Positions 920-49,112 of a DNA stretch of 64,000 nt are shown here, piece after piece (positions within the stretch are counted from its first letter, which is position 1; each line of letters opens with the position of its first letter). Position numbers and translations under genes: made by a program. The stretch spans positions 23,495 to 87,494 of the IMG/VR virus record IMGVR_UViG_3300025597_000613; one strand, written 5' to 3'. Source of the stretch: a virus (Duplodnaviria > Heunggongvirae > Uroviricota > Caudoviricetes). Under the pieces are notes generated by a model. That model worked only from the letters and a program-made list of their open reading frames with translations. It was not told the origin of the DNA and made no database searches.

Positions 920-1195
920 TTATTTCTCCAAAGGATGAGGAACGGGAAAAACCATATAGGTAGCAATGGTGATATCTCTTGATTTTTCCCCCGGGAAAAG
1001 TGGTTCTGTAGGTTGGCCGTAAAGGAATCGTTTCACGACACATTCAGCCAGGCGAACCTTTGCAGGCGTATATTGCCCGTCACCTTCTTTGACTTTTTTA
1101 GCACAACCGATAGTCGTATGAGAGAAACCGCCGTCGCTACGAGAGTAGCCGTACCAGCTACCGATGATAATTTCATTACCGAGGGCGTCAGTCAT
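920..1195 (-). CDS. hypothetical protein (91 aa)
   Basis: minus-strand ORF; 4-nt overlap with upstream gene. Confidence 0.4.
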   Translation of the reverse strand: MTDALGNEIIIGSWYGYSRSDGGFSHTTIGCAKKVKEGDGQYTPAKVRLAECVVKRFLYGQPTEPLFPGEKSRDITIATYMVFPVPHPLEK

Positions 1196-1401
1196 GATTT
1201 ATTCTTGGGTCGGTAGGTAATGAGCCAATTGAGGGCATAGTGAATGAAGTATCCAGCAAGTGCAATAGAAACTAAAGGTGCCAGGGTAGCCATGACTATG
1301 GCCAGAAACACAGGCCCTTCGTGTTCATCGATTTCAAGAAGATATCGAGCAACCAGCACGGCCTGCACAATCGCGTAGAGGATATAAATGGTTGGAATCA
1401 T
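1192..1401 (-). CDS. small hydrophobic membrane protein (69 aa)
   Basis: two hydrophobic stretches (AIVQAVLVARYLL / AIVMATLAPLVSIALAGYFI). Confidence 0.4.
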   Translation of the reverse strand: MIPTIYILYAIVQAVLVARYLLEIDEHEGPVFLAIVMATLAPLVSIALAGYFIHYALNWLITYRPKNKS

Positions 1402-1474
1402 TTGATTTGCTTTCTAAAAATGCGGGTCTTATTGACGCTGCCCGCACCGAGCGCATTCACACTGCCCAACAATT

Positions 1475-1699
1475 TTACGATGTTGCTGTCTTTTTGTCAA
1501 TGACAGCATTGGCATATTTTAGCTTGAATAGAATAGCCAGATCTTCCTCGATGTGCAAGGTAATATCCCTTCGTGGTCCCGACATGCTCATTCCAGACCA
1601 ATGCTGTGGGCCCAGGAGTGATACACGAAAGGCAACTTCCTCCTTGTAGGTATCACTATCGGCCCATCCATAGACGGTATATCTGACCCAAACCTTCAT
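1475..1699 (-). CDS. hypothetical protein (start at internal Met)
   Basis: ORF 1475..1777; internal ATG at 1699 gives ATGA-type overlap with SleB-like gene end (1696). Confidence 0.35.
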   Translation of the reverse strand: MKVWVRYTVYGWADSDTYKEEVAFRVSLLGPQHWSGMSMSGPRRDITLHIEEDLAILFKLKYANAVIDKKTATS

Positions 1700-2298
1700 G
1701 TTTTGCGCCCAGGATAGAATGGTTTGAAGAAACGGTGGTTCTCGATAATTGCCACTTGGGTATATTGTCGAGTCCATTGCGGATAAATGTATCCTTTTTC
1801 TTTCATGACTTTGTCCGCGACGTAATGCGTCGCACCCTGCGTAGGATCAGCAATTGTACGCTGGTATACAGCCCTTGCAACGCGCAGAGACTGCTGCCAG
1901 CCCGCTTGGTCAATGACATTTTTTTGTCGCGGCTCGACCTTCAGGCTCATTGCTGCCATCCGAAGAGTGGGATTATCATTGAAGACACTGTATTGTTTGG
2001 GTGCAAGCACTACGTCACAGATAGGCTTCTTCGTTGCACGATTCATAGCAGTCCACGCCACTGCAATCATTCCGTGTTCGGGTTCGCCACGAGCCTCACC
2101 GTAGACCATGGTGGCCAGACACTTAACTTCCTTGTCGGCCTTCTTTGCGTCATTGATAGAGATGAAGCCACGGCCAGCGCCGGCCTCGCCTTCTACAAAA
2201 TGGACGGCCGTTGATTTTGCTTTACCAATATGCGGCATATGCACGCCAGCATCACAGGCAACAAGGGCCAAAGGTAGGAATAGGAGTACAGCTCTCAT
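1696..2298 (-). CDS. SleB/CwlJ-family cell wall hydrolase, predicted lipoprotein
   Basis: MVYGEARGEPEHGMIAVAWTAMNRA matches SleB/Hydrolase_2 hallmark (EARGE...NR); N-terminal signal with lipobox LVAC; AGGAG 3 nt upstream of ATG. Confidence 0.6.
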   Translation of the reverse strand: MRAVLLFLPLALVACDAGVHMPHIGKAKSTAVHFVEGEAGAGRGFISINDAKKADKEVKCLATMVYGEARGEPEHGMIAVAWTAMNRATKKPICDVVLAPKQYSVFNDNPTLRMAAMSLKVEPRQKNVIDQAGWQQSLRVARAVYQRTIADPTQGATHYVADKVMKEKGYIYPQWTRQYTQVAIIENHRFFKPFYPGRKT

Positions 2299-2356
2299 AC
2301 TCCTATAATAAGACTAAACAGGATTTAGGTCAATAACCTAATCCTTATTTAAGAAT

Positions 2357-2815
2357 TTACCTGTCAACAATCCCGAGACCGAAGTGTTGAAAAAATTCCC
2401 TTGTTGCCGCAATAAATTCTTCTTCGGTGAGATGCTCAGGAATAGTGACTTCGTAGGATGTTCCCTTAAAGTGATTTTTACGAATACCGTCACTAAACAC
2501 CAGCCATCTGAGATTTCGAACATCGTCGTAGAAGACCCAGGCACCCGGATACGATTCATAGCCCTTCATATGGCAATTCGGCTTCCCGAATTTTTGAGCA
2601 ATGTCGCAACCGTGAATTCTAAAGTTCATTTCTAACTGTTGGCCGAGTGTAGAATCACCAGCCTTGACAGACCAGAAGCCACGAAAGTTAGGAAAGCGAT
2701 CGGAATAATACAGATTACTGAGTACCTCACCCTGACTGGAGATTTTTTCAATTTCCTTAATTGTGAGGTTGCCTTGGTGCTGAGTTATCATATCTACCTC
2801 AGAAATATTTTTCAA
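2357..2815 (-). CDS. hypothetical protein (152 aa)
   Basis: minus-strand ORF; no motif recognised. Confidence 0.4.
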   Translation of the reverse strand: MKNISEVDMITQHQGNLTIKEIEKISSQGEVLSNLYYSDRFPNFRGFWSVKAGDSTLGQQLEMNFRIHGCDIAQKFGKPNCHMKGYESYPGAWVFYDDVRNLRWLVFSDGIRKNHFKGTSYEVTIPEHLTEEEFIAATREFFQHFGLGIVDR

Positions 2816-3056
2816 GAACTTTCTTCACTCTGCGTTCGTGCCGCATCTCCCGAATCTCATGGGCATTATATTCTTCTTCAGTGGCCTGATTCCACCTTTG
2901 ATCATTATGCCAATATTGCCAATTCATGCATTGAAGATAAAAATTTACAGCAGAATCCAGAGAGGTGCAGATTTTAGTCTTCTTATACTTCTTACCAAAT
3001 TCTGTATAACGAACGGTGAGGGAAATTCCCTTTATTGGCTTAATATCTGTTTTCAT
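2799..3056 (-). CDS. hypothetical protein (85 aa)
   Basis: minus-strand ORF. Confidence 0.35.
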   Translation of the reverse strand: MKTDIKPIKGISLTVRYTEFGKKYKKTKICTSLDSAVNFYLQCMNWQYWHNDQRWNQATEEEYNAHEIREMRHERRVKKVLEKYF

Positions 3057-3244
3057 TTATTCAGCCATCTGAAGAAATACACTACCGCACTAATACAGAA
3101 GATGGTGTTAACAACGGGGACAAAGCATGAAGAGATATATCTACCCAGGGTCCAGCCCTTGTGATCCTCCTCAGTATTCCATTCGTAGATGGAAAGCAGA
3201 ATCATACAGATAGTGCTGATAAGATAGATGTAGAGAAGAATCAT
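3053..3244 (-). CDS. small membrane protein (63 aa)
   Basis: two hydrophobic helices; 4-nt overlap with downstream gene. Confidence 0.35.
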   Translation of the reverse strand: MILLYIYLISTICMILLSIYEWNTEEDHKGWTLGRYISSCFVPVVNTIFCISAVVYFFRWLNK

Positions 3245-3553: not shown

Positions 3554-3629
3554 TGGTAGACCGCCAGGGGGTCGAACCCTGTCCTAACGATTATGAGTCG
3601 TTTGCTATTACCAACTTAGCTCGCAGTCC
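3554..3629 (-). tRNA. tRNA-Met (anticodon CAT), 76 nt, CCA encoded
   Basis: hand-folded cloverleaf: acceptor GGACTGC/GCGGTCT (two G-U), D arm GCTA-AGTTGGTAA-TAGC, anticodon arm AACGA-CTCATAA-TCGTT, T arm CAGGG-TTCGACC-CCCTG, discriminator A + CCA. Confidence 0.8.
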
Positions 3630-5298: not shown

Positions 5299-5373
5299 TG
5301 GTCCGGCGTAGAGGAATCGAACCTCTATCAGCGGATTAGAAGTCCGCGGTTCTGTCCGTTGAACTAACGCCAG
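5299..5373 (-). tRNA. tRNA-Arg (anticodon TCT), 75 nt, CCA encoded
   Basis: hand-folded: acceptor CTGGCGT/ACGCCGG, D arm GTTC-AACGGACA-GAAC, anticodon arm GCGGA-CTTCTAA-TCCGC, T arm AGAGG-TTCGATT-CCTCT, discriminator A + CCA. Confidence 0.8.
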
Positions 5374-12151: not shown

Positions 12152-12577
12152 TTATTCCATCGTCTTTGATTTCAAATAAGAAAGTAGTTCCTGCCCCATC
12201 TCTTTAATTTGACTATTCATTTTATCAGAATAACTGTTATAGTATTCTTTCTTGTAAAGATCTTGTTTGTAATATAGTTTACTATCTTCCAGGTCGTAAT
12301 ACTTCTTATTGAGTTTACTGATATACTCTTTCTTTGTATTAGAATCTAAATTTTCTTCAATCTTTGGACGATCAACATATTCATTAATAAATCTTAATTT
12401 TATCAATACCGCAATATCCTCGGGAGCGGTAATGCTCACATAGTTAAAATCCTTGCTATAGGGATAATAGCTAGACACGTCCTTGATTTGGCCTGTGGGA
12501 TAAGCCCCATAGAATCCTGTAATGAATTCGCCTAATGCTAAAGACAATTTTCCTAATTTGAAATCTAACGTAACCAT
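12152..12577 (-). CDS. hypothetical Tyr/Lys-rich protein (141 aa)
   Basis: minus-strand ORF. Confidence 0.4.
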   Translation of the reverse strand: MVTLDFKLGKLSLALGEFITGFYGAYPTGQIKDVSSYYPYSKDFNYVSITAPEDIAVLIKLRFINEYVDRPKIEENLDSNTKKEYISKLNKKYYDLEDSKLYYKQDLYKKEYYNSYSDKMNSQIKEMGQELLSYLKSKTME

Positions 12578-12771
12578 ATATTGTCGCCAAATTTTAATGA
12601 TAATAGAGTGTATTCTTCTTCGGAAATTCTTAGATGGTAATACTTATAAAGCCTATTATCTGGATATCCCGAACCTACCGTCTGATCCCTTATAATTTGA
12701 AACTCGGCACTAACCAGACTTTCGATATATTTAGATTCAGATTTATCAACAGTGAGATTTGCTTCAATCAT
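12565..12771 (-). CDS. hypothetical protein (68 aa)
   Basis: minus-strand ORF. Confidence 0.35.
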   Translation of the reverse strand: MIEANLTVDKSESKYIESLVSAEFQIIRDQTVGSGYPDNRLYKYYHLRISEEEYTLLSLKFGDNIWLR

Positions 12772-13577
12772 AGATCTTTATACAGTTTTACCATGTCTGG
12801 AATGCGCGTCTTGGCATTGCGACTACCAAGCAGGATCATGAATCTTTGACCGGCCGGAGAATCGACCAACATAACAAGACAGCCACCGGCTGGATTTGTG
12901 TATCCTGTCTTCGATAAAAGAATATGCAAAGTGTTGGTCAGAGGATTAGTATTCTTGACCTTGATTGTTTTCTTCTCGGCAGCAATTTCTGCCTTCGGGA
13001 GACTAGAAAGTTGGGTAATTACTTCATTATTGGATGCAACAATCATCAGTTTTAGAAGATCAACCGCGGTGCTAGTATTTTCCCTGCTCAGGCCAGTAGG
13101 TTCAACAAAAGTGGTGTGTTCCATGCCGAGTTCTGCAGCCTTTGCGTTCATAGACTCAACGCAATTGGGCAGATTCTCACAAAGAATCTGTGCGGCAAAA
13201 TTGTCGGATTTAACAAGGGCAAGAGTCAGTAATTCACGACGAGATAGCTTATCAAGCTTTTTCGGAATGCTGCTTTGAACAGAGCGGGTAGAGGGAATAG
13301 GAAGTGACTCATCCAAATCTTGTTCTGCCGTAAGAAGAGCCACCATCAACTTACTAATTGATGCAATGGGGCGAACCTGGTCACTTTCTTTTTCCTTTAG
13401 CACCGTACCATCACGGTCAGCAATGAGGAAGCTCTGTGCAGAAAAAGGTACAGGTGCAACAGGTCTTGATTTCTTTCGTGCCTCGGCATGACCTGCAAAG
13501 GCCAGGGCCATACACGCAATGAGGAGTAGCTTCTTCATAGATTTATGTATTTTAGCACTGATGTAATAGATTTGCAA
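12768..13577 (-). CDS. secreted serine D-Ala-D-Ala carboxypeptidase / PBP-beta-lactamase-fold protein
   Basis: signal peptide MKKLLLIACMALAFAGHA; active-site triad SISK (SxxK), SDN, KTG in canonical order and spacing. Confidence 0.65.
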   Translation of the reverse strand: MQIYYISAKIHKSMKKLLLIACMALAFAGHAEARKKSRPVAPVPFSAQSFLIADRDGTVLKEKESDQVRPIASISKLMVALLTAEQDLDESLPIPSTRSVQSSIPKKLDKLSRRELLTLALVKSDNFAAQILCENLPNCVESMNAKAAELGMEHTTFVEPTGLSRENTSTAVDLLKLMIVASNNEVITQLSSLPKAEIAAEKKTIKVKNTNPLTNTLHILLSKTGYTNPAGGCLVMLVDSPAGQRFMILLGSRNAKTRIPDMVKLYKDL

Positions 13578-13580
13578 GGA

Positions 13581-13886
13581 TTATCTTACCGCCCTTATCC
13601 ATAAGGTGTCATGGATCTGGAATTCCTGATGTGGAAGGAGATGCCTTGTATTATCGGTGTACCATTGTGCAAGTATATTTTGTGAGATTAGCTTGAAAAC
13701 AAGAAGTGCCTCCGGTTCAAAAATATATTCGGAGGAAAGCTGTTTTCTTATTGTGTGATCCTGATTATATCCGGGCCGCTCAATTACAGTCCAGACTTTT
13801 CCGAAAGATGAATAACGTGCCAGTGCCTTAAATTCCTCTGGCGTTATTATACGCGAATCTTTCAGAAGAATACTAACTTCGTACAC
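13581..13886 (-). CDS. hypothetical protein (101 aa)
   Basis: minus-strand ORF. Confidence 0.4.
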   Translation of the reverse strand: MYEVSILLKDSRIITPEEFKALARYSSFGKVWTVIERPGYNQDHTIRKQLSSEYIFEPEALLVFKLISQNILAQWYTDNTRHLLPHQEFQIHDTLWIRAVR

Positions 13887-13889
13887 TTT

Positions 13890-14276
13890 CTAACCCGTAA
13901 TTAATCCCTGTGATGGGGCAGTCCATAATGGACCGGCTGATACAGGGCCATATGTCTTGACAGGAAATGCTAATGTTTCACCTGTGTCCAATCTAAAACC
14001 TAGCTTCCCGCCACGATCGGTGGTGCTTAGATAATTGTTGAGGACCTTTATCATGAATGTCCCCTGTGTAGAATCCACAAGGATGAGTTGGCGTGTATCA
14101 AAAAGTACCGAAGCAGGATTGGTGGGAAACCAGTTGATATTTACAATTCGATCAAGTTCGACGCCCGATAATCGGAAATAGCTGGGAACGCCGCTAGTGA
14201 TAACTATGCCGACTGTACCTGTTCCTTGAAAGGGACTACTAGGTAATCCGTAGATTTCGGTAATGATTGTTGCCAT
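13890..14276 (-). CDS. hypothetical beta-rich protein (128 aa)
   Basis: minus-strand ORF. Confidence 0.4.
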   Translation of the reverse strand: MATIITEIYGLPSSPFQGTGTVGIVITSGVPSYFRLSGVELDRIVNINWFPTNPASVLFDTRQLILVDSTQGTFMIKVLNNYLSTTDRGGKLGFRLDTGETLAFPVKTYGPVSAGPLWTAPSQGLITG

Positions 14277-14292
14277 CCAGTATTTATCTGGA

Positions 14293-14604
14293 TTAGAAAT
14301 TTAGTGTTTCGTTGGTTAAGTCAATAAAGGGACGCATCTGCGACTGAGAACACTTCAATTCACGATAGTTTATTAGGGCATTGAAATCATTCTCTGATAA
14401 TTCAACAGGTTTTAATGACTTTTGCAGAAAGATAAAACTAACGATAGATTCGTCTGCCTCAAATGCATGCCCGGAGGATGCAAATTCTTTATGTCCCAAT
14501 CTTAGCGTTCTATGAGACCAATCCCAATAACAGGCGGTTATTTTTGAAGCACCTGCGAATTCCAGTTCCTGTCTGGAGAAATCATCAAACCAATAGTATT
14601 TCAT
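14293..14604 (-). CDS. hypothetical protein, tandem paralog 1 (MKYYW...)
   Basis: MKYYWFDDFS...CYWDWSHRT...KEFASSGHAFEADES is homologous to the adjacent ORF. Confidence 0.45.
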   Translation of the reverse strand: MKYYWFDDFSRQELEFAGASKITACYWDWSHRTLRLGHKEFASSGHAFEADESIVSFIFLQKSLKPVELSENDFNALINYRELKCSQSQMRPFIDLTNETLNF

Positions 14605-14921
14605 GACATGGGTTGTGCGTAACGATAAATTCGTTCAGAGACTGCCATTATCAACTTCTCATTGAATTTTACATAATCGCCCCTAACGATGCGATTATAT
14701 TGTCTCTCAGAAATCTCTAAAGGCGAGTGCTTAGTCCTGAGCTCACAGAATAATTCAAATCCCTCGTCTGCCTTGAATATAAATCCCTTCTTGGCAAATT
14801 TATCAGTGTCGTGCCTGGACATACCGAGATGCCATTCCCAATAGGTTCGGTGAATGTGATTTGCGCCTATTGCTCTGATATTATCTTTGCCGGCATCCTC
14901 GTAGATCCAATAGTATTTCAT
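14601..14921 (-). CDS. hypothetical protein, tandem paralog 2 (MKYYW...)
   Basis: MKYYWIYEDAG...TYWEWHLGM...DKFAKKGFIFKADEG; 4-nt overlap with paralog 1. Confidence 0.45.
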   Translation of the reverse strand: MKYYWIYEDAGKDNIRAIGANHIHRTYWEWHLGMSRHDTDKFAKKGFIFKADEGFELFCELRTKHSPLEISERQYNRIVRGDYVKFNEKLIMAVSERIYRYAQPMS

Positions 14922-19062: not shown

Positions 19063-20265
19063 TTATCGACGCTTCGGGGAATGACTATCCGGCTCGTACC
19101 AGGCAGTCATACCAAACGGTGCAACCAACCGATGAGACGGGTCACCGTGAATCAGGAACAGGGTGTCGCAATAATTCTCATCACCCCAGCTACCACAAGG
19201 ATAACCGTCCGTCATCATAATGAATCGTTCAGGTTGCAGGTCCTTAGACTTCATGAACTCCCAATTACACATGAAATCGGTGCCACCGCCACCGGCCAGC
19301 GGATACTCATTGATTTCTTCGAGATTTTCCGGAGTGTACTTGATATGGTTGTACACGCGAGTATCGAAGCACCAAACATCCAGCTCAAAGTCCATGAACT
19401 GTTCCATAATGCCCTTAGTTTCGCCGAGCAAATCGCGCAGCATATCTTCAGACATAGAACCCGACGCATCGATGGAGACAGCGGCCTTGACCTTGAAGTC
19501 ATTCTTGGTAGCAGGCAGATAGATGCCCGAGGCCTGCATCTTACGCGAGCAACGATCCCAGGTAAAATCGCTCTTCACCATCGATTGAATCTTCATGTTA
19601 AGAATCTCGCGCCAGTCCATCTGCGGCTCGGTGAGATCCTTCAGCATGCGGCGCACACCGGCAGGGGTATTACCGGCACCGGATGCCTTCGCAGCCTGCA
19701 TCACAGCATTGCGAATTTCGTCACGCAGCGCGGCAACTTCTTCGGCCGACATGGGTTCACCACGACCATCACCGGAGCCGGGCTCAAGGTGGATGTCGAA
19801 CTCGGGGAAGTTTTGGTTCGGATCCTTCATCAGCAGTTCGTAGACTTCTTCAGCGAACATGCCCTTGTACTTTTCATCGATACAACCTTGCACACCCGAA
19901 GTCTTCGGATTCGGCATCTTACCGATGCGGTGCTCACTCAGTTCCAGATTGATAACGAAGTCGGCTGCCGCGTTCCACATCTTCGGCTTACGCTCACCAC
20001 GACGGTTCATGTGATCGTAGACACAGTGTTCCACTTCGTGCGCAACAAGGAAGATGGTCTCTTGTTTATCGAGTTTGGAGATGAAATCACGGTTGTAGTA
20101 GAAATAGCGACCGTCCGTACCGGCGGTCTTACACCAGTCTTCATCAGTCGCATCCTTGAGGATCAGGCGCGTGGCCAGCGTACCCCAAAACGGTTGCTGA
20201 AGGAGAAGGGAAATACGAGCGCGGGTGAGTTGCTCAAGAACGGCTGCGGGACTGTTATCTGCCAT
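19063..20265 (-). CDS. VWA-domain protein with N-terminal HExxH metallopeptidase-like domain (DUF2201-like, MoxR partner)
   Basis: HEVEHCVYDH (HExxH); MIDAS motif DASGSMS; start set at ATG preceded by AGAGG. Confidence 0.7.
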   Translation of the reverse strand: MADNSPAAVLEQLTRARISLLLQQPFWGTLATRLILKDATDEDWCKTAGTDGRYFYYNRDFISKLDKQETIFLVAHEVEHCVYDHMNRRGERKPKMWNAAADFVINLELSEHRIGKMPNPKTSGVQGCIDEKYKGMFAEEVYELLMKDPNQNFPEFDIHLEPGSGDGRGEPMSAEEVAALRDEIRNAVMQAAKASGAGNTPAGVRRMLKDLTEPQMDWREILNMKIQSMVKSDFTWDRCSRKMQASGIYLPATKNDFKVKAAVSIDASGSMSEDMLRDLLGETKGIMEQFMDFELDVWCFDTRVYNHIKYTPENLEEINEYPLAGGGGTDFMCNWEFMKSKDLQPERFIMMTDGYPCGSWGDENYCDTLFLIHGDPSHRLVAPFGMTAWYEPDSHSPKRR

Positions 20266-20331
20266 TGTAGACCTCTTAGTTGATGTTTGTATTTTAGTAG
20301 GATGTTGCGTAATGGTCAACCAGTTGCACCA

Positions 20332-20578: not shown

Positions 20579-20779
20579 TTATCCCCACGCACCAGGCATT
20601 TCCTCTTCTCTGGTCATAGCCTGGATAAATGTGGTCATATTGCCGATGTTATGAGAGGCCACGCCGCCCTGTAATACCCACCCTAATGCAAGGTAGGCAT
20701 TGACAGCATTCTCTAAAAGGGCGATAGTATCACCCCTTACAATCATGTACTCTTTCGACATCGGCATATTGTTCTCCAT
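20579..20779 (-). CDS. hypothetical protein (66 aa)
   Basis: minus-strand ORF bracketed by two similar hairpins. Confidence 0.35.
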   Translation of the reverse strand: MENNMPMSKEYMIVRGDTIALLENAVNAYLALGWVLQGGVASHNIGNMTTFIQAMTREEEMPGAWG

Positions 20780-20780
20780 A

Positions 20781-20800
20781 GATAGGGACTTGAGCCCCTA
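20781..20800 (-). terminator. hairpin ATAGGG-ACTTGAGC-CCCTAT (variant of the 20523 hairpin)
   Basis: inverted repeat just downstream of AAA ATPase gene. Confidence 0.35.
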
Positions 20801-20804
20801 TCCA

Positions 20805-21896
20805 TCAGTCTTCCAGGATGTACTTACCGTACTTCTCGTGGAACTGCTTGAACGCCTTCAGCTCGCGGTGGTTAATCAGTTCCACGTAGTCGCGCAGTGC
20901 GGTCTTAGCACCCAGGACGATCATCTCGGTCTGGAAGTTAGCCATCATGTACACGAAGAAGTTATCCACGCATTCATGCCACGCCTTCATATCGAAGCCG
21001 TCTTCCTTCGCCTTCGCCTTCGCGGTCCATTCCTGGAGCGTATAGCACATGGAGATGGTCAGCGAATACATGGCGCTCAGATCCTTGACGTTCAGATCCT
21101 TGACCTTACCCACCAGCACATCTTCCGGCTTCGGCATCTTGGCCGCAACACGACGGTGAGCAGCGAACTCGGTAGCCAGACCGTCACCAACGGTACCGGC
21201 GACCAGCGTCGTATTCAGCGATTCCGGCAGCTCGTCACCAATCAGCTGCGAAACGAATGCCCACGAACGCGGAGTAGCGAACGCCTTGTCCGGGCTCTTC
21301 GGATCGAAGTTGAAGAGCTTTTGCTTGTGGTGCGACAGGAAGCCCACGACGTCCGGATGGACCTTGGCACCAATCGCCCACTTCTGCCAGTCTTCGAAGT
21401 TAGCACCCATCTCGATGTGAACCAGACGGTTGGCCAGCGGGCTGGGCATACGGTAGGTAACACCCTTGTCGCTATCACGGTTGCCCGCGCACACCATCGA
21501 CACACCCTTCGGCAGCTTGTATTCGCCAACACGACGGTTCAGGATCAGCTGGTAGGCCGCAGCTTGCACGCTCGGCGGAGCAGCGTTGATTTCGTCCAGG
21601 AACAGGATTGCATTTTCCAGGAACGTGTCGGTCGGCAGGTCAGCCGGTTGCGCCCACTTCATCGTCTTCGATTCCGGATCAAAATACGGAATACCCTTGA
21701 TGTCGGTCGGTTCCAGCAGAAGCAGACGCATGTCGATAACGGGACGACCAGTCTCTTCGCCGATCTCGGCAATCAGTTCCGACTTGCCAATGCCCGGAGG
21801 GCCCCAGATCATCGCAGGGCGGCCAACCTTCATGCAACGGGTCAGCAGGGTTCGAACGTCGCGCGGACGGCTGGGATCACGGGTGGAATTGCTCAT
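20805..21896 (-). CDS. MoxR/CobS-like AAA+ ATPase
   Basis: Walker A GPPGIGKS; Walker B ILFLDEIN; ~360 aa single AAA module typical of MoxR/CobS family. Confidence 0.8.
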   Translation of the reverse strand: MSNSTRDPSRPRDVRTLLTRCMKVGRPAMIWGPPGIGKSELIAEIGEETGRPVIDMRLLLLEPTDIKGIPYFDPESKTMKWAQPADLPTDTFLENAILFLDEINAAPPSVQAAAYQLILNRRVGEYKLPKGVSMVCAGNRDSDKGVTYRMPSPLANRLVHIEMGANFEDWQKWAIGAKVHPDVVGFLSHHKQKLFNFDPKSPDKAFATPRSWAFVSQLIGDELPESLNTTLVAGTVGDGLATEFAAHRRVAAKMPKPEDVLVGKVKDLNVKDLSAMYSLTISMCYTLQEWTAKAKAKEDGFDMKAWHECVDNFFVYMMANFQTEMIVLGAKTALRDYVELINHRELKAFKQFHEKYGKYILED

Positions 21897-21956
21897 GTAA
21901 AGTTCTCCTTGGTTGGTTGGGTTGAGCTAAAAACGTATGTCACTATTATGTATGTG

Positions 21957-22355
21957 TTATGCAATGGCGTCAATTGGCTTAGACTGATTCTTGAATGTCA
22001 TGCCACCAAAGGTAAGCGTGAACAACAAACAATCTTCCTCGTTCACAAAGAAGAAATCAAAATAATCAAATAGTTGACTCCAAATCCAGTTATCTCCGAA
22101 TTTTTCATTGCACCATTTTGCCATGTTGTTGAACTCGTCGTCGCTTACTTGGTTTATATCGAATCTAATGCCGGGAAATTTATTTTGAAGTTTTACCTTA
22201 TTCACAGTTGTGAATTCTCCAAGCCCAAAGGATTGAAATTTTATTTTCAAATTCTCCAGAGTGGGACCGTTGAGTGCTACCATAATATTTGGTCGTATGA
22301 TTGCAATTCCAAGACTAACGTAAGATTCTTTGAGGAATAAACCACCATCGGTCAT
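21957..22355 (-). CDS. hypothetical protein (start at internal ATG, ATGA overlap with upstream gene)
   Basis: ORF 21957..22421; ATG at 22355 preceded by AAGG. Confidence 0.4.
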   Translation of the reverse strand: MTDGGLFLKESYVSLGIAIIRPNIMVALNGPTLENLKIKFQSFGLGEFTTVNKVKLQNKFPGIRFDINQVSDDEFNNMAKWCNEKFGDNWIWSQLFDYFDFFFVNEEDCLLFTLTFGGMTFKNQSKPIDAIA

Positions 22356-24834: not shown

Positions 24835-24865
24835 ATCAACATTGTAAGGCAATATGCCCTCGGCG

Positions 24866-25960
24866 TCAATAGACGTAATCCTGCCAGTTCTTCTTTTCTG
24901 CCTTTTCCTTGCTGAAGACAACAACCGCGACATCCGGCGTGCCTTCGTTGAGGACGTAAGTGAAAGTACCCTTCTCAACGTCAATTGCCTTCAGGTAACG
25001 CTGATCCACATCCAGGGTGAAGGAAGTTTCCTCTTCGGTATCTTCTCCATTGCCATTGGGGTCGGTATCAATCCAAAGATTGATAGTATTGTGCATCATC
25101 GGATTACCACGGAAGGAATCAGGATTGACATGTTCAGGTCCGAATTCTTTGCCCTTTGCCATCACCTTGACATCATAGGTAGTATAACTACCTTGGACGA
25201 AGGGTTTGACGTTAAGCATTTCCAGTGCCTGTTGCGGGCTTTCGTTGTATCGATTCATTTCTTCGACAAGAGCCTTCAGCATGTCAAAGTTGATACTATC
25301 AAAGACCATGGTAAGGCGCACCACCGATTCGAGGTATTCCTTATTCAGAAGATTGTCTTCGCAGTAGCTACGAATGAAATCAGCCTCAAGTCCCTTATAT
25401 TCCAGGGCGTAGAAAATTCGACCCGGTCGATTAGTCATATTGCTGTTGATGCGACCACGATCGTTGGAAGTAAGCACAAACAGAGTCTTCGAAGGATAAA
25501 CACCATCAAGGAGAGTCAGCAGGGCTTCCTGGTCCTTCTCACTGTATACCTTCTCGAATTCATCAAAAACAACAACTTTCGGTTCAGTAATATCTTGGAT
25601 GAATTTATTGAAGGCGTCGCCATTGAAGGAATTATTGACGATAATGGTAGGAATACCACGCTCGGCCGCCTTACGGGTTACCAGTTTAGCAAGGAGGGTC
25701 TTGCCCGAGCCTTTTTCGCCATTCAGGAGCACACCAGTGCTTGCAGGACGAGAAAGGAAAGTATCAAGGATTCGATCGGCCTGACGCGGGGAATTACCGT
25801 AGATCTTACCGGTGATATCAAAGTCCTTGGTTTCAGTCAGAAAAAATCCCTCCAAGCTGACATTGACCATATAGGTGCCGACCGGAAGACCGTCACGAAT
25901 ATCGTATGCACCAGGTTGGGTAATAAAGAGATTTTCGCCTCGCTTAAGGAAGTGTGTCAT
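24866..25960 (-). CDS. AAA-family ATPase
   Basis: Walker A GEKGSGKT; Walker B VVVFDEFE; the antisense 421-aa plus-strand ORF was rejected. Confidence 0.65.
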   Translation of the reverse strand: MTHFLKRGENLFITQPGAYDIRDGLPVGTYMVNVSLEGFFLTETKDFDITGKIYGNSPRQADRILDTFLSRPASTGVLLNGEKGSGKTLLAKLVTRKAAERGIPTIIVNNSFNGDAFNKFIQDITEPKVVVFDEFEKVYSEKDQEALLTLLDGVYPSKTLFVLTSNDRGRINSNMTNRPGRIFYALEYKGLEADFIRSYCEDNLLNKEYLESVVRLTMVFDSINFDMLKALVEEMNRYNESPQQALEMLNVKPFVQGSYTTYDVKVMAKGKEFGPEHVNPDSFRGNPMMHNTINLWIDTDPNGNGEDTEEETSFTLDVDQRYLKAIDVEKGTFTYVLNEGTPDVAVVVFSKEKAEKKNWQDYVY

Positions 25961-25976
25961 AGTTTTCTTTCAAAAG

Positions 25977-26210
25977 TTATTTGTGTGCTTGAAGATAGGT
26001 GCGAACCCAGGTCGCAATATTGTCGCTGTCGGTATAGAATCGAAGTTCGTTTCCATTCATACCGACAGCTTCAAAAATGTATTCGTCTGTCGAATAATTG
26101 TTTTTCAGAGATTTTTTAAAGTCGGCAAGTTCCTCAACAACATAAAGGCTCAGACGACCGAGGTCCCAGCCATATTTTGCCTTACGTGATTTCAATTCTC
26201 TTGAGTACAT
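25977..26210 (-). CDS. hypothetical protein (77 aa)
   Basis: minus-strand ORF. Confidence 0.4.
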   Translation of the reverse strand: MYSRELKSRKAKYGWDLGRLSLYVVEELADFKKSLKNNYSTDEYIFEAVGMNGNELRFYTDSDNIATWVRTYLQAHK

Positions 26211-31364: not shown

Positions 31365-32615
31365 TTACTTTTTGGCACCAGCCGGAGCTTGACGCACACC
31401 CATATCGACCGCAACTTCCTTAGCAGTCTTGGCAGTCATCAGGTCGACCAGACCAGCAGCATTGTTACCACCGTTGCCTTGCCCACTCGAACCCATAACC
31501 ACCGAGGGAGCCCATGCACCAGGTTGGGCATTCTTGATAGCATCAGCGTACAGTTCGTTGATCTTCACGACAGCCTCAAGGCGCTTATCAAGTTGACCGT
31601 CGGCCTCCATAACCAGGCGCTTACGTTCAGCTTCACCCTGGCCTCGGAGGATTTCCGATTTCTTGAAAGCTTCAGCTTCCTTGACGTTAGCTTCAGCAAT
31701 CGTAACCTTAGCCTGTGCATCAGCAATTGCCTTCGCAGCAATGGTCTTTTGTTCCCATTCAGCCTTGGCAGCGTTAGCGCGACCTTGGGCTTCAGCAGTC
31801 AGTGCATCCTGGTCAGCCTTTTTAGCGTTAGCGATAGCCACAACCGCTGCATTGGTAGCCGCTTGCTGTTGCTGGATCTGCTCTTCAACTCGCTTCTCAT
31901 AGCTGAATGCACTGATAGTCATAGGCAGCATCTGGACATTGTATTTTTCCACATAGCTGGCCTGTGCGCGGATGGGTTGACCCTTATCATCCTTGACAAT
32001 TTCAACCACAGTCATATCCTTTTCCACGCCTGCAATATCCTTGGCACGGATGGTCTTGCTGACAGTCTTATAAACGCCGCGCAGAACCTGATCATTCATA
32101 ATCTGAAGCAGCTCGTTACGACGGCCCGCAGCAGAATCAAATGAGCTCATGGTAGGGCCCGAGAAGGTAGCAGCCGATTCCATAGAGCGTCGGATAGCCT
32201 GGACTTCAAAGGCTTCGGCCGAGCGGAATTCCTTATGGATCTCGATAACATCCTTCGGAGTCAGCGGCATCAACCAGGAAATAGAGCCACACAGGGTAGC
32301 ATTACCACCGTCGTAGAAACGAATGCCCAGACCGCCCGTGGAAACATGCTTCTTTTCCTCTGCGTTCTTCATGCATTCCGGATCCATGAACTTCAGTTCA
32401 TTGCGTCGCGGATATTTAGTGACGGTACCGAAACCTTGCCACTTGTAACCACCATTGTCCGCATACACAGTAAGTTCACCAGTAAGCGGGTGTTGGATGA
32501 CCATGATTTCACTTGCATCCATATCTTCAAAAAGCTTAGGCAGGCTAACAAGCACTGCGAAAGCAAACATCACCGCCAGAACGGCGCCGGCAATTCGACC
32601 AATAGTCCAGTTCAT
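31365..32615 (-). CDS. SPFH/band-7 (flotillin/stomatin-like) domain protein
   Basis: N-terminal TM, SPFH core, then Ala/Glu/Lys coiled-coil (AEAQGRANAAKAEWEQKTIAAKAIADAQAK...) typical of flotillin-like proteins. Confidence 0.7.
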   Translation of the reverse strand: MNWTIGRIAGAVLAVMFAFAVLVSLPKLFEDMDASEIMVIQHPLTGELTVYADNGGYKWQGFGTVTKYPRRNELKFMDPECMKNAEEKKHVSTGGLGIRFYDGGNATLCGSISWLMPLTPKDVIEIHKEFRSAEAFEVQAIRRSMESAATFSGPTMSSFDSAAGRRNELLQIMNDQVLRGVYKTVSKTIRAKDIAGVEKDMTVVEIVKDDKGQPIRAQASYVEKYNVQMLPMTISAFSYEKRVEEQIQQQQAATNAAVVAIANAKKADQDALTAEAQGRANAAKAEWEQKTIAAKAIADAQAKVTIAEANVKEAEAFKKSEILRGQGEAERKRLVMEADGQLDKRLEAVVKINELYADAIKNAQPGAWAPSVVMGSSGQGNGGNNAAGLVDLMTAKTAKEVAVDMGVRQAPAGAKK

Positions 32616-33928: not shown

Positions 33929-35122
33929 TTAACCCTTCACGCAGAGTACCTGCTTCAGTGTATGCACGATTTCCACAAGATCAGATTGTGCTGCCATTAC
34001 TTCATCAATGTCTTTGTAAGCACCGGGAATTTCATCCAGCACAGCATCATCTTTTCTGCATTCAACACCAGCAGTCTGTTCTGCCAAATCGAGCGAAGTG
34101 AACAATTTCTTCGCTTGATTGCGGCTATGCTTTCTGCCAGCACCGTGAGAGCAAGAGCAATAGGATTCGGCATTTCCCTTACCACGAACGATAAAGGATT
34201 TTGCACCCATCGAGCCAGGAATAATACCCATTTCGCCATAGCGTGCAGATACAGCACCCTTTCGAGTTACCCAAATACCTTGCTCACCGTGTTCTTCCCA
34301 CGAGGTGAAATTATGATGACAGTTGACAACTTCCCCCACAATTTTCATGGAAGGGAAACGAGTCTTCATCGCTGCCAACACCAGATTCATCATGGTGTCT
34401 CTATTCATACGGGCATAATCTTGAGCCCAATGCATAGCTTCAATATAGGAATCGAATTCCGGGGTGCCTTCGTCGAGCCAAGCAAGATCTTGGTCAGCAA
34501 GGCCCCAGGCACGCTTAATTGCCTGTTCCTTGGCCATTTCAATAGCCACGGTACCAATTTGGTTGCCAATACCGCGGCTGCCCGAATGTAGCATAATCCA
34601 GACACGATTCTCAGTATCAAGACAGATTTCGATAAAGTGGTTACCGCCACCAAGTGTCCCAACCTGACGACCAATACGATGTTCATCGGCACGTCCAAGC
34701 TTTGCCTTAAGTGCCAGCGAATCCCAACGCTTCATCACCTTAACAAGGTTCTTACGAAGAACATCGGCGTAGGGTCCCGATACGGCAGGAATGCCAGCCT
34801 TATGCTCATTGAAGCCGACAGGTACATCACGCTCGATTTGGTTGCGGATCGCAAACAAGGATTCCGGAAGATCGTCAGCAGTCAGGCTGGTCATCACGGC
34901 GCACATTCCGCAACCAATATCGACACCGACGGCTGCAGGAATGATTGCATTGCGAGTAGGAATAACAGAACCAACAGTGGCTCCCTTACCCATGTGAACG
35001 TCCGGCATAATGGCAATATGCCCTGCCAGAATCGGTAGAGTGGAGATGTTGGTGATTTGTGTAACGGCAGCCTCTTCGACCTCCATTGCACCAACCCACA
35101 TCTTTACATTTTGAATTTCCAT
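33929..35122 (-). CDS. rtcB: RtcB-family RNA ligase (3'-phosphate/2',3'-cyclic phosphate to 5'-OH)
   Basis: MPDVHMGKGATVGSVI, GGGNHFIE, SGSRGIGNQ, NCHHNF, CSHGAGRK cover all conserved RtcB metal/GTP-binding blocks; GAGGT SD confirmed. Confidence 0.9.
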   Translation of the reverse strand: MEIQNVKMWVGAMEVEEAAVTQITNISTLPILAGHIAIMPDVHMGKGATVGSVIPTRNAIIPAAVGVDIGCGMCAVMTSLTADDLPESLFAIRNQIERDVPVGFNEHKAGIPAVSGPYADVLRKNLVKVMKRWDSLALKAKLGRADEHRIGRQVGTLGGGNHFIEICLDTENRVWIMLHSGSRGIGNQIGTVAIEMAKEQAIKRAWGLADQDLAWLDEGTPEFDSYIEAMHWAQDYARMNRDTMMNLVLAAMKTRFPSMKIVGEVVNCHHNFTSWEEHGEQGIWVTRKGAVSARYGEMGIIPGSMGAKSFIVRGKGNAESYCSCSHGAGRKHSRNQAKKLFTSLDLAEQTAGVECRKDDAVLDEIPGAYKDIDEVMAAQSDLVEIVHTLKQVLCVKG

Positions 35123-35641
35123 TTAAACCTCGACGCCGTGCCTCTTAATATCTTCACGTAGTATATACTCAACAAACTGATTTAGCGACATATCAGCTTC
35201 ATGTGCCATTTCCATTAGCATTATTCGCTCTTTGTCATCCAACTCCAGTGTGACCATAATGCGAGTGTCGTATTCTTCACCCAAGAAAATTGCGCGAGCC
35301 TTTTCAATGATGTCTTCGGGCACTTCCAAATTGATGAACTTGCGTTCGTCAAATGACTTCTTCCACTTGACATTACGGCCCTTGGCTTCTTTCTTGTGTG
35401 CATCAATATAGTCGGGATGAATCCAACGATATTCCCTTTGATTGGCATAATCCCACGCCTGCATTTCGTACACAGTTTGATCTACAGTATCAAACAGAAT
35501 GAAGATTGTATCGGCCTCGTGCCCTTCTTTACTTTGATATTCCAGATATCGCACATTCGGGCCGTAGCAATTCCACATATATTCGGTACCACCAGTGATG
35601 TGGTATTCAATGCATTCGAGGAAGTCTTTGATTGTAATCAT
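35123..35641 (-). CDS. two-domain protein, paralog A: unknown N-domain + C-terminal ribbon-helix-helix
   Basis: WNCYG / EMQAWDY / EYRWIHPDYI / EKARAIFLGEEYD shared with 36839..37351; C-terminal RIMVTLELDDKERIMLMEMAHEADMSLNQFVEYIL fits a beta-alpha-alpha RHH. Confidence 0.55.
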   Translation of the reverse strand: MITIKDFLECIEYHITGGTEYMWNCYGPNVRYLEYQSKEGHEADTIFILFDTVDQTVYEMQAWDYANQREYRWIHPDYIDAHKKEAKGRNVKWKKSFDERKFINLEVPEDIIEKARAIFLGEEYDTRIMVTLELDDKERIMLMEMAHEADMSLNQFVEYILREDIKRHGVEV

Positions 35642-35880
35642 TTTATTGCCTTTAATTTTCTAAGTGTCCTTTGTTGATCATATTGTTCCATAACTTCCTT
35701 AATCAGGAATTTAAAACAAGATGTCCAACCTGAACCATCGGGGTTACGCGGGATTTCTCCACTCAAAAATGAGTGAGCGATGGGTATTACTCTTTCATTT
35801 TCCCAGACAGCAATCCAAGAGAGTGCATCCAACAGGGTTGGTTCTTCGCACGCTCTATCGATTGCTTCTTGGAAGTTCAT
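35638..35880 (-). CDS. hypothetical protein (80 aa) within the RNA-repair cassette
   Basis: 4-nt overlaps on both sides. Confidence 0.4.
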   Translation of the reverse strand: MNFQEAIDRACEEPTLLDALSWIAVWENERVIPIAHSFLSGEIPRNPDGSGWTSCFKFLIKEVMEQYDQQRTLRKLKAIK

Positions 35881-36842
35881 GCTTGTACGATTTCAATAAC
35901 ACGCGGTGCATGTACCTTCGGAAGATCTGCGCCACAGGATTTACGAGTCAGTTCCGGATGGTTCTTGGCGTAGTCTTGCACATACCAAAGCTGACCACAA
36001 CCACCACCAATATCATCCTGACCTGCAGGATCAAAGCAACGAGTAGAAAAACCACGCTCCAACATTAAACCCATGAAATCGGTGGCCAAAGCACGTTGGC
36101 GCTCATTTGCAGCAGCAACAGATTCATCCTGTTCGCAAACAACTGACACAGTGGATTGCCAAATCCTTGGATCAAACAGGCCAAACAGGCGATCAGCATC
36201 GGCAGCCGATGAATTATCGGCATGGGCGCAATAGTTAAAGAAAGGTTGGCGGCCGGTGGCCATAAACCACAGCATACCTTCTTCTGCAATTCTTTGCAGA
36301 TTGAGCTTGGCTTTGAAAGGGATCAATCTATCGCGTGCTTCGTCAGTGCTTTCATGTACGCTAAATTGCAGACCGACAGTGGGAATTTCCACAGAGATAT
36401 CCCTGACCCACTGATAATCCACATCGGGTGCGGAAGTGCTGATAAGCAATGCAGCAGTCGGATACAATGCATGCAGTTTTCTCAGCGCATCGGTAAGACC
36501 CTGTTTATTCAGCAAGGGCTCACCCATGGACATGAACATGATCTGAGTACGCTTCACCTTGGATTGATCGATATTCTGATCAGCAAACAGATGTTGCACC
36601 TGTGCAACAATTTCATCTCCCGTCAAACTACGGATAAAGAATTCACCAGTGCCGCAGAATCTGCATCCAACCGGGCAACCCGATTGAGTGCTGCAACAGA
36701 TGACCGTACGATCTTCGTAGGTTGGATACTTATACAACACCGCTTCTGCAACCGCGGCGCGTTCTTTCTCGTTGGTAAACACATACTTACGGACGTTTTG
36801 ATCCGAGCTTGGAATACAGCGAACACTTTCCCATTGATTCAT
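35877..36842 (-). CDS. RlmN/Cfr-family radical SAM RNA methyltransferase
   Basis: CPVGCRFC (Cx3Cx2C); MGEPLLN, ISTSAP and C-terminal GGGCGQL align with RlmN blocks (MGEPLLN, LSTSG, ACGQL catalytic Cys). Confidence 0.75.
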   Translation of the reverse strand: MNQWESVRCIPSSDQNVRKYVFTNEKERAAVAEAVLYKYPTYEDRTVICCSTQSGCPVGCRFCGTGEFFIRSLTGDEIVAQVQHLFADQNIDQSKVKRTQIMFMSMGEPLLNKQGLTDALRKLHALYPTAALLISTSAPDVDYQWVRDISVEIPTVGLQFSVHESTDEARDRLIPFKAKLNLQRIAEEGMLWFMATGRQPFFNYCAHADNSSAADADRLFGLFDPRIWQSTVSVVCEQDESVAAANERQRALATDFMGLMLERGFSTRCFDPAGQDDIGGGCGQLWYVQDYAKNHPELTRKSCGADLPKVHAPRVIEIVQA

Positions 36843-37351
36843 TTTTTGTCCTTGATATAGTCTGTTAGAATTTGGTTAACAAATTCATTCAGTGTTAGAT
36901 CTTCTTCATGCGCCATACACATCAATTGGTATTTGTCCTCTTCGGAGAGGTCAACCCTTACCAGCAATCTGGAATCGTATTCAATTCCGAGATAGATTGC
37001 ACGAGCCTTTTCAAGCATGTCATCGAGTTCTTCAATATCAATGAATTGATTATCATCAATGGATTGATAAAAATCGACACGTCGACGTTTAGCTTCCGCA
37101 AATGCAGATTCGATATAACCAGGATGGATCCAGCGATATTCTCGGAAGGATTTTCTTTCCCACGCCTGAATTTCAAATACCTGCTGGGTGTTACGATCGA
37201 AGACACAACTTACAGTAACTTCGTTATCTTTGCTTACCATTCTGGAATGGGAAATTGCCTGTGCGTTTCCACCGTAGCAATTCCATTGGAATTCATAGCC
37301 ATCAACTACATTGTAATTGATAATTTTCAAAAAATCATCGAGATTTATCAT
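36839..37351 (-). CDS. two-domain protein, paralog B (homolog of 35123..35641) with C-terminal RHH
   Basis: same conserved blocks (WNCYG, EIQAWE, EYRWIHPGYI, EKARAIYLGIEYD) and RHH-like C-terminus. Confidence 0.55.
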   Translation of the reverse strand: MINLDDFLKIINYNVVDGYEFQWNCYGGNAQAISHSRMVSKDNEVTVSCVFDRNTQQVFEIQAWERKSFREYRWIHPGYIESAFAEAKRRRVDFYQSIDDNQFIDIEELDDMLEKARAIYLGIEYDSRLLVRVDLSEEDKYQLMCMAHEEDLTLNEFVNQILTDYIKDKK

Positions 37352-47135: not shown

Positions 47136-47370
47136 CTACTTTTATATATTTTCTAAAATCGTATTTCCACATAGGATACGATAATACATATCCTGTCCAA
47201 CCCTCGTCTGTAAATATAAAATACAGATAATGTTCAATGCTTCCCTCTTCTGTCCAATCTATATAGATTTCTTCTGCCCAGGTTCTCACAGTTTCGTCAA
47301 TATACCTGAAAGATTTTTCGAGAGATTTTTGGTCTCTCGGGTTATAGGGACCGCATTTGTATATAATCAT
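47023..47370 (-). CDS. hypothetical protein (start trimmed to ATG abutting QueE stop)
   Basis: ORF 47023..47427 in a different frame from 46899..47135; frameshift or sequencing error possible. Confidence 0.3.
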   Translation of the reverse strand: MIIYKCGPYNPRDQKSLEKSFRYIDETVRTWAEEIYIDWTEEGSIEHYLYFIFTDEGWTGYVLSYPMWKYDFRKYIKVDAVLESAETLPRISVENSSGPEGRNFLCHGDDVVVQK

Positions 47371-48835: not shown

Positions 48836-49112
48836 TTGTACGCATCCATTTTAGAACTCTTTCTTTCTTGGCAATCTTTGCCTTTTCGAGTCCTTCTTCG
48901 GTAATACCAATACCTGCTTCTCTGCACATATCAATCATTGCTAATACATCTCCCAATTCCATTTCTAGGTTTTGGAGATTATTTAGCCCATCACCGGATT
49001 TGCGGTTCAATAAACCGAAACGCTTTATCTTAGATGCTGCCTGAATAACTTCGGAGCATTCCTCTTGAAGGATTTCAAGGCATTCCTCTTGGTGGTCAGT
49101 TAAATGACGCAT
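48828..49112 (-). CDS. MazG-like nucleotide pyrophosphohydrolase (small all-alpha NTP-PPase)
   Basis: EECLEILQEECSEVIQAASKIKRFG matches the MazG EExxE...A...FG helix motif. Confidence 0.5.
   Translation of the reverse strand: MRHLTDHQEECLEILQEECSEVIQAASKIKRFGLLNRKSGDGLNNLQNLEMELGDVLAMIDMCREAGIGITEEGLEKAKIAKKERVLKWMRTNA

Follow-up and report, generated by a model that had tools for sequence, protein, structure and literature searches.

A predicted PBP7-like peptidase gene in a putative uncultured jumbo phage and its possible part in loosening the host wall

Discussion of peptidoglycan-active phage enzymes is normally confined to entry, where tail lysins are at work, and exit, where endolysins are. 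The DNA studied here, 64,000 nucleotides (nt) of IMG/VR virus record IMGVR_UViG_3300025597_000613 (positions 23,495 to 87,494; hereafter the window, in which all positions are counted from the first letter), raises the question of what a phage might do with a wall enzyme of a host type. The window carries, on its minus strand, a gene for a serine peptidase of family S11. We read its product as a PBP7/PbpG-like low-molecular-weight penicillin-binding protein (PBP) of an uncultured jumbo phage, which would be made early, exported by the Sec pathway and, acting as a delocalised cutter of cross-links, loosen the wall of the host. To this reading we give a probability of about 0.6.

A PBP7-like member of the S11 family

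The 256-amino-acid (aa) protein lies well above the cut-off of Pfam PF00768 Peptidase_S11 (MEROPS S11, low-molecular-weight PBPs), with 123.3 bits and E 1.4e-35 against a cut-off of 27.6; a weaker partial match to Beta-lactamase2 (52.6 bits, residues 49-177 only) is expected for the shared fold. The best NCBIfam model is the PbpG equivalog NF008668 at 154.5 bits, whereas models of carboxypeptidases and other S11 enzymes all reach 43 bits or less (DacD 37, DacA 24 and PRK10001 20 bits, with cut-offs of 610-765). A sequence search of the PDB returned PBP7-type endopeptidases at E 1e-30 to 1e-31, the best two (E about 1e-31) being 6azi and 6muq, annotated as D-alanyl-D-alanine endopeptidase and murein DD-endopeptidase, and PbpG of Escherichia coli K-12 is 44% identical over 193 residues (E 2e-39). 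An AlphaFold2 model built from 26 homologues has a mean predicted local distance difference test score of 86 and is uncertain only in the signal peptide and a linker. Compared with the PDB by Foldseek, it places 6muq and 6azi on top (TM-score 0.79, root-mean-square deviation 2.2-2.3 Å), followed by other S11 DD-peptidases; there are 363 matches at E<=0.001, and among the matches listed all are PBPs or DD-peptidases. No second domain fits within the 256 aa, which sets the architecture apart from that of PBP5 and PBP6.

The SxxK, SxN and KTG motifs follow one another in canonical order, and their nucleotide coordinates were checked on the sequence (Table 1). They are invariant in 26 aligned homologues of the jumbo-phage clade described below (alignment A1; the mixed alignment A2 is more diverse) and present in 120/120 homologues, the best 120 of 2175 matches, 116 of which also keep a pair of cysteines, C120 and C126, that could form a disulfide in the periplasm. 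The catalytic residues align with S67, K70, S124 and K231 of PbpG, of which S67, S124 and K231 are indispensable both to the toxicity of overproduced PbpG and to its binding of Bocillin, S67 and K70 being among the residues tested by mutagenesis (Liu et al. 2024, PMC11586513). Homology and modelled fold together mark the protein as a PBP7-like S11 enzyme with intact catalytic residues, and it appears to be PBP7-like without being an orthologue of PbpG.

The gene had been placed at 12768..13577 in a preliminary description of this DNA, made from the letters alone. The open reading frame (ORF) stands; its TTG start does not. All homologues begin where the internal ATG at 13538 falls, and since they lack the 13 codons that a start at TTG 13575-13577 would add, and this TTG forms the first bases of the -35 box TTGCAA, the gene was trimmed to the ATG. 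The resulting protein begins MKKLLL and is identical to a protein called on a 239-kilobase (kb) metagenomic contig (P0001). Its N-terminus, MKKLLLIACMALAFAGHAEA followed by RKK, has on reading by eye the n/h/c layout of a signal peptide, with two lysines, a hydrophobic core of 13 residues and an A-x-A site (A-E-A). The layout is common to every aligned clade member and analogous to that of the E. coli PbpG signal peptide; a crude heuristic applied across the homologues is passed by 107 of the 116 full-length ones. In the model an N-terminal helix leads into a disordered, low-confidence linker. The protein would probably be exported by Sec and lose this peptide by cleavage. Residues 6-9, 'LIAC', might suggest a lipoprotein, a reading that we rejected since this Cys lies too near the N-terminus and is missing from homologues, and since the extension back to the TTG consists of promoter sequence. 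The preliminary description had announced a predicted signal peptide and the motifs in canonical order in a phage-encoded serine enzyme of the PBP/beta-lactamase fold, and had named loss of the active-site Ser and Lys as what would refute it; on all these points it is borne out.

Its label of DD-carboxypeptidase is another matter. Such an enzyme, once exported, would trim the terminal D-Ala of pentapeptides and remove the donors of transpeptidation, with less new cross-linking as the outcome and no cutting of the cross-links already in place. Fold and motifs are indeed those of S11 carboxypeptidases, the short single-domain ones match the model at TM-scores of 0.74-0.78, one relative is called a carboxypeptidase by JGI, and viral homologues bear the label 'DacC' in UniProt. 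The PbpG score against those of the Dac models, together with the identity to E. coli PbpG, nevertheless speaks for the other branch of the family, as does the annotation of the two best fold matches as DD-endopeptidases. The carboxypeptidases PBP5 and PBP6 (DacA/DacC), while sharing catalytic fold and motifs, are 21-25% identical and possess a C-terminal beta-sandwich and an amphipathic membrane anchor, both missing from the phage protein. We consider a carboxypeptidase unlikely and infer the specificity of a DD-endopeptidase.

The nearest known enzymes, PBP7/PbpG of E. coli, 6azi of Enterobacter cloacae and 6muq of Yersinia enterocolitica, are likewise single-domain, soluble, periplasmic S11 enzymes with a signal peptide, and the likeness to PBP7/PbpG extends to the core identity, the equivalent motif positions and the fold. 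The phage protein is shorter (256 aa against 310 aa, with shorter loops), has the added invariant cysteine pair, and is encoded by a phage behind a consensus promoter with almost no leader. By alignment it stops at about residue 280 of PbpG, so the alpha-helix at the C-terminus, the last ~30 residues of the bacterial protein, is missing. In PbpG this helix is needed for localisation at midcell and not for activity, and helix-less PBP7 is still toxic and lytic when overproduced (PMC11586513).

Distribution of the gene and placement of its promoter

A search of 5.8 billion proteins yielded the 2175 matches, the best 120 of which are 58-75% identical and 242-284 aa long. Several of these 120 lie on contigs of 344-388 kb, and contigs of the clade reach about 390 kb. 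Four contexts share the gene order AAA ATPase, DUF2201, HNH, a 253-aa gene, a 111-aa gene, small genes, a 127-130-aa gene and the PBP gene, a synteny that is kept on contigs of 362-388 kb. In a library clustered at 50% identity the clade amounts to one full-length representative (315 bits), after which come full-length proteins at 221 and 193 bits (47-48% identity) and then a continuum at ~40%. Relatives occur on 420 viral contigs of IMG/VR; of the best 80, about 45 are clade members, and the remainder are copies of 37-45% identity in unrelated neighbourhoods, on contigs of up to 524 kb.

Among catalogued phages enzymes of this class are rare: a search of 50,697 phage records turned up only 42 matches, none of which reaches 38% identity, and in BFVD only 7 structures match. 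S11-like phage genes already stand in databases as PHROG 5304 'peptidase', as an annotation in a Microcystis phage and as four 'DacC' or 'Peptidase S11' BFVD entries from uncultured Caudovirales. Literature searches on phages and jumbo phages brought up no paper devoted to an S11 enzyme of a phage, the one 'pbpG' match being a list of host virulence genes, and the published account of the Jug gut jumbo phages makes no mention of an S11-type enzyme. Scans of GTDB found no match in its genomes with the single protein and no clade member in its species-representative genomes with the clade alignment. The best bacterial matches in GTDB are 30-42% identical and come mostly from Beta- and Gammaproteobacteria, values from which no host or donor can be named.

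By neighbour joining the clade comes out as monophyletic, inside a group of short forms that have the cysteine pair in common; the longer PbpG-like proteins of bacteria stand apart from this group. These short forms (~235-260 aa), found in bacteria and on other viral contigs, have the length class, cysteine pair, signal peptide and motifs of the clade, and in some of the viral copies, too, a promoter stands 5-6 nt from the ATG. They are, however, only 38-48% identical to the clade proteins and have no flanking genes in common with them, whereas the jumbo-phage clade is a tight cluster by itself, at >=58% identity. Phages are not the only carriers of the short form, as P0126/P0276 is chromosomal, on a 1.1-megabase bacterial contig beside pyruvate kinase, Fur and thioredoxin. 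On the viral side, loci L064-L101 (among them L079 on a 524-kb and L069 on a 270-kb contig) hold short PBP7-like genes with signal peptides, intact motifs and wholly different neighbours, which suggests independent acquisition by other large phages.

Presence of the gene within the clade was assessed from the neighbouring 253-aa gene instead of the PBP gene itself, at loci with enough downstream sequence only. Anchored in this way, 12 of 14 loci (8 of 10 distinct ones) have the PBP gene, 2.9-4.0 kb downstream of the 253-aa gene, and two, L119 and L123, show a clean gap between a 101-aa gene (g101) and a 75-aa gene (g75). The ratio of nonsynonymous to synonymous substitution rates is 0.05-0.08, from 4 of 325 pairs, synonymous sites being saturated in the others, and the guanine-cytosine (GC) content equals that of the surroundings. 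Because of the high presence, the clean absences, the low ratio, the retained motifs and the matching composition, the gene is best described as a long-resident, selected yet dispensable accessory cassette. In the manner of morons, it has its own promoter (18 of 26 loci), sits between conserved genes and is patchily present; no terminator was found for the cassette. By these comparisons the gene is the phage's own and under purifying selection. The two upstream neighbours, of 128 and 101 aa, are conserved (42-64% identity) in related loci, both of those lacking the PBP gene among them, and have no family match. Downstream, a 68-aa ORF with no match in Pfam or PHROG overlaps the PBP stop codon, an arrangement that suggests translational coupling.

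The promoter upstream of the gene is conserved in its placement across the clade. In 18 of 26 distinct loci a sigma-70-type promoter, agreeing with the consensus at >=9 of 12 positions, stops 5-7 nt upstream of the ATG, and in 5 of those 18 it reads as a perfect TTGACA-N17-TATAAT; at three of these loci, only 9 of 138 other genes have the same arrangement (Fisher p 1e-11). All S11 genes compared in this respect begin with ATG. L026 and L027 differ by a 16-nt leader containing GAGG, and in the window the gap between promoter and ATG is 10 nt, with no Shine-Dalgarno sequence. Transcription normally starts ~7 nt past the -10 box, and since the promoter ends 5-7 nt before the ATG, a leaderless mRNA is predicted. 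If host RNA polymerase in unmodified form transcribes the gene, expression would follow early in infection; early timing and leaderless translation are thus what the promoter points to. Similar promoters precede further genes of the window and of the related locus L003 (Table 1), and leaderless host-transcribed mRNAs may be a general trait of early genes in this phage group.

Table 1. Features of the S11 gene, its surroundings and other parts of the window, with corresponding sites on related contigs (positions in the window unless a locus is named)
Feature	Position	Strand	Basis or remark
Predicted coding sequence of PBP7-like S11 serine DD-peptidase, stop included	12768..13538	(-)	Pfam, PbpG identity, AlphaFold2/Foldseek
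Predicted Sec signal peptide, residues 1-20 (MKKLLLIACMALAFAGHAEA), cleavage after A-E-A	13479..13538	(-)	Read from sequence
SxxK motif S60-I-S-K63, nucleophile Ser and general-base Lys	13350-13361	(-)	Invariant in A1; aligns with PbpG S67/K70
SxN motif S111-D-N113	13200-13208	(-)	Invariant in A1; aligns with PbpG S124-E-N126
KTG motif K210-T-G212	12903-12911	(-)	Invariant in A1; aligns with PbpG K231-T-G
Cysteine pair C120...C126 (LCENLPNC)	13161..13181	(-)	Invariant in A1; >=90% conserved in A2; missing from E. coli PbpG
Sigma-70-type promoter: -35 TTGCAA 13577-13572, 17-nt spacer with TG, -10 TAAAAT 13554-13549	13549..13577	(-)	Sequence
68-aa ORF, ATG overlapping PBP stop codon (ATGA)	12565..12771	(-)	Homologues abut PBP stop in L110, L117
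Two conserved upstream neighbours, 128 aa (13890-14276) and 101 aa (13581-13886)	13581..14276	(-)	Mark cassette insertion point
Sites with 128-aa, 101-aa and 75-aa genes and no PBP gene between	L119 4087-4365; L123 13022-13546		Natural 'knockouts'
Other window genes with TTGACA-N17-TATAAT-like promoter 5-6 nt before ATG	Starts 45658, 42169, 40865, 24834, 8249, 2298	(-)	
L003 genes with TTGACA-N17-TATAAT-like promoter 5-6 nt before ATG	Starts 7864, 10823, 13085, 13685, 14272		
Hydrolase_2 (SleB-type) lipoprotein, 200 aa	1696-2298	(-)	PHROG 'endolysin' families; starts MRAVLLFLPLALVAC, lipobox LVAC
Small ORFs with two hydrophobic segments, holin-like	1192-1401, 3053-3244	(-)	Near Hydrolase_2 gene
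Family B DNA polymerase, T4-type, C-terminal half only	62408-63967	(-)	PHROG 262 positions 440-854
tRNA-Met (CAT)	3554-3629	(-)	Among small ORFs
tRNA-Arg (TCT)	5299-5373	(-)	Among small ORFs

Proposed role and competing explanations

The sequence of events that we propose would begin soon after infection, with host sigma-70 RNA polymerase transcribing the gene from its own near-consensus promoter into a nearly leaderless mRNA. Sec would export the precursor, and the 20-residue signal peptide would be removed. In the periplasm, an acyl-serine mechanism (S60/K63, S111/N113, K210) would, going by homology, cut the 4-3 cross-links between D-Ala and meso-diaminopimelate in the sacculus. Since the C-terminal helix that sends PBP7 to the divisome is missing, the enzyme would act over the whole wall, and cross-linking would fall. 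The loosened wall would then allow the cell to stretch while a long jumbo-phage cycle runs its course, or would prepare it for the real lysis genes. That the sacculus is in this way made extensible, or weakened in advance, is speculative as a biological purpose. It is the reading that we prefer, and it fits both the lysis of E. coli by helix-less PBP7 and the view of endopeptidases as 'space-makers' (PMC11586513). A broader statement is offered tentatively and strikes us as rather doubtful: that loosening of the sacculus sets in as soon as infection starts, that it is the work of a delocalised PBP7-like endopeptidase translated from a host-transcribed mRNA with no leader, and that it is practised by a whole clade of jumbo phages (~350-390 kb) as well as, independently, by other large phages.

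The same enzyme might instead serve lysis, either as a secreted endolysin or as an accessory that builds up in the periplasm and joins in the destruction of the wall at the end of the cycle. Endolysins with signal peptides exist, and endolysins in general, including the signal-peptide and signal-arrest-release types, are like the S11 protein phage-encoded, exported and active on peptidoglycan; their peptidase domains are mostly M15, M23, CHAP or NlpC/P60, not S11. The PHROG match of our protein is a generic 'peptidase', compatible with such a role, and overproduction of PBP7 lyses E. coli (PMC11586513). The position of the gene argues otherwise. It has its own host-type consensus promoter and lies outside any lysis cassette, among a block of small genes of early type; its immediate neighbours encode small soluble proteins with neither membrane segments nor family matches, and no holin-like gene or holin/spanin adjacency was found beside it. 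A separate Hydrolase_2 gene, whose product has a lipobox and belongs to PHROG 'endolysin' families, lies ~10.5 kb downstream, with small holin-like ORFs nearby and, 6 nt ahead of the ATG, a sigma-70-like promoter, and recurs at the same relative position in a 388-kb relative (L004). These genes appear to be better candidates for lysis than the PBP gene, and the area 1192-3244 is probably the real lysis region. The two related phages without the PBP gene must, moreover, still lyse their hosts. The S11 protein is probably not the main lysin, and a role in lysis seems to us quite improbable.

Exclusion of superinfecting phages, or editing of the envelope, would have an early periplasmic enzyme alter the wall in such a way that the tail lysins or the DNA ejection of rivals fail. 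Exclusion systems, such as Sp and Imm of T4, typically involve phage proteins that are early, periplasmic and dispensable; the moron-like character of the cassette, with its own promoter and patchy presence, would suit such a function, and jumbo-phage reviews suggest modification of peptidoglycan or capsule against rivals. Cutting cross-links should, however, ease a breach of the wall and not hinder it, and to our knowledge no exclusion system uses an S11 enzyme, which makes this explanation very improbable. A beta-lactamase, or a beta-lactam sink shielding the infected cell from antibiotics, had also been raised in the preliminary description and can be dismissed: the fold is shared and Beta-lactamase2 matches in part, but that match covers a single portion of the protein, the class A model NF033103 gives 16.9 bits where its cut-off, reflecting the deacylation machinery of the omega-loop, is 200, and the closest relatives are all PBPs.

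Several points weigh against the loosening of the wall by a PBP7-like endopeptidase. The score for the PbpG equivalog is about half of the cut-off of 294, the middle motif is SDN where PbpG has SEN, and the short S11 carboxypeptidases Lmo2812, Rv2911 and B. subtilis DacB also match the model, at TM-scores of ~0.75. Endo- and carboxypeptidase specificity cannot be reliably told apart from sequence, and the assignment of this protein and its phage homologues rests on homology and not on enzymology. Promoter function, leaderless start and early timing are predictions, and the window copy has a weaker -35 box and the wider, 10-nt spacing. The peptidoglycan chemistry of the host is assumed; early release of a lytic endopeptidase could do harm, so that its dose must be limited; and L119 and L123 do without the gene. 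Wall remodelling during infection, as the preliminary description had put forward, remains a plausible function for the S11 enzyme.

The phage, its host and the meaning of the enzyme

Minus-strand ORFs cover ~94% of the window, which encodes RtcB, a 5'-3' exonuclease, a MoxR-type ATPase partnered by a DUF2201/VWA protein, HNH endonucleases and two tRNAs. The polymerase ORF is closest to those of Sinorhizobium phage Phosso (43%), Agrobacterium phage Atu_ph07 (42%) and Rak2/121Q-like enterobacterial phages (39%); its match in Atu_ph07 carries an annotation as two polymerase genes, so that the polymerase may be split, as it is in related jumbo phages. For the DUF2201 protein the nearest counterpart is that of Pseudomonas phage PA5oct (53%). 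Since a megablast of the window's 11-16 kb against the 50,697 phage records gave no match, the phage has no close cultured relative among them, and by these affinities the window comes from an uncultured jumbo phage, distant kin of Atu_ph07, Rak2 and PA5oct. Our best guess for the host is a Gram-negative bacterium, probably a proteobacterium, because the named relatives all infect Proteobacteria and the promoters are of the TTGACA/TATAAT type. A small neighbouring protein (L001, 16555-16971) matches Pfam DUF4884, a domain described from Bacteroidetes, in conflict with these promoters and relatives. A host among the Bacteroidota is made less likely by the sigma-70 promoters, of TTGACA/TATAAT type, and by relatives that are phages of Proteobacteria.

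Elsewhere in the window, six minus-strand ORFs (31365-32615, 33929-35122, 35877-36842, 47367-48245, 49096-50061 and 52811-53989) include an RtcB RNA ligase, an SPFH/Band-7 protein and a NAD-dependent sugar epimerase/dehydratase, with a radical-SAM match near the Pfam cut-off (28.9 v 29.5 bits), a weaker second one and a weak match to a glycosyltransferase. The region hints at RNA repair and at sugar-nucleotide chemistry for modification of DNA or envelope. The genes for DUF2201, the MoxR-type AAA and a second AAA protein (19063-20319, 20700-22073 and 24854-26119) are each faced by a plus-strand antisense ORF of near-equal length (400-457 aa), in a stretch of raised GC content (0.47-0.53 against ~0.40); the antisense frames are probably shadow ORFs arising from composition. 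The overlapping tandem genes 14293-14604 and 14601-14921 (minus strand) both start MKYYW and are paralogues by BLASTP, and four further paralogue pairs occur in the window, e.g. 35123-35641 with 36839-37351. A wider family of small paralogues around the S11 gene, with a '..KLR..' motif, was considered and dropped, as BLASTP supports only the tandem pair.

The kind of enzyme described here is well known. What is new is its syntenic presence in a clade of large jumbo phages, the natural loss of the divisome-targeting helix, the arrangement of promoter and predicted leaderless start, and the separation from the lysis genes. A host-type wall-remodelling enzyme is kept under strong selection by a large uncultured clade, in a form that seems wired for early expression and periplasmic export and that lacks the part confining its bacterial counterpart to the division site. 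The recurring spacing between promoter and ATG offers a test case for leaderless translation of phage early genes. If the role proposed for the enzyme is true, the host wall would be actively managed during long jumbo-phage infections, and the protein would provide a compact, naturally deregulated DD-endopeptidase with which to study how cleavage of cross-links contributes to wall expansion and lysis. On the broader and more doubtful statement given above, the enzyme would also amount to a 'space-maker' function, by which the cell swells to house giant virions, and would represent a previously unrecognised class of host takeover that acts on the growth of the wall and not on its lysis.

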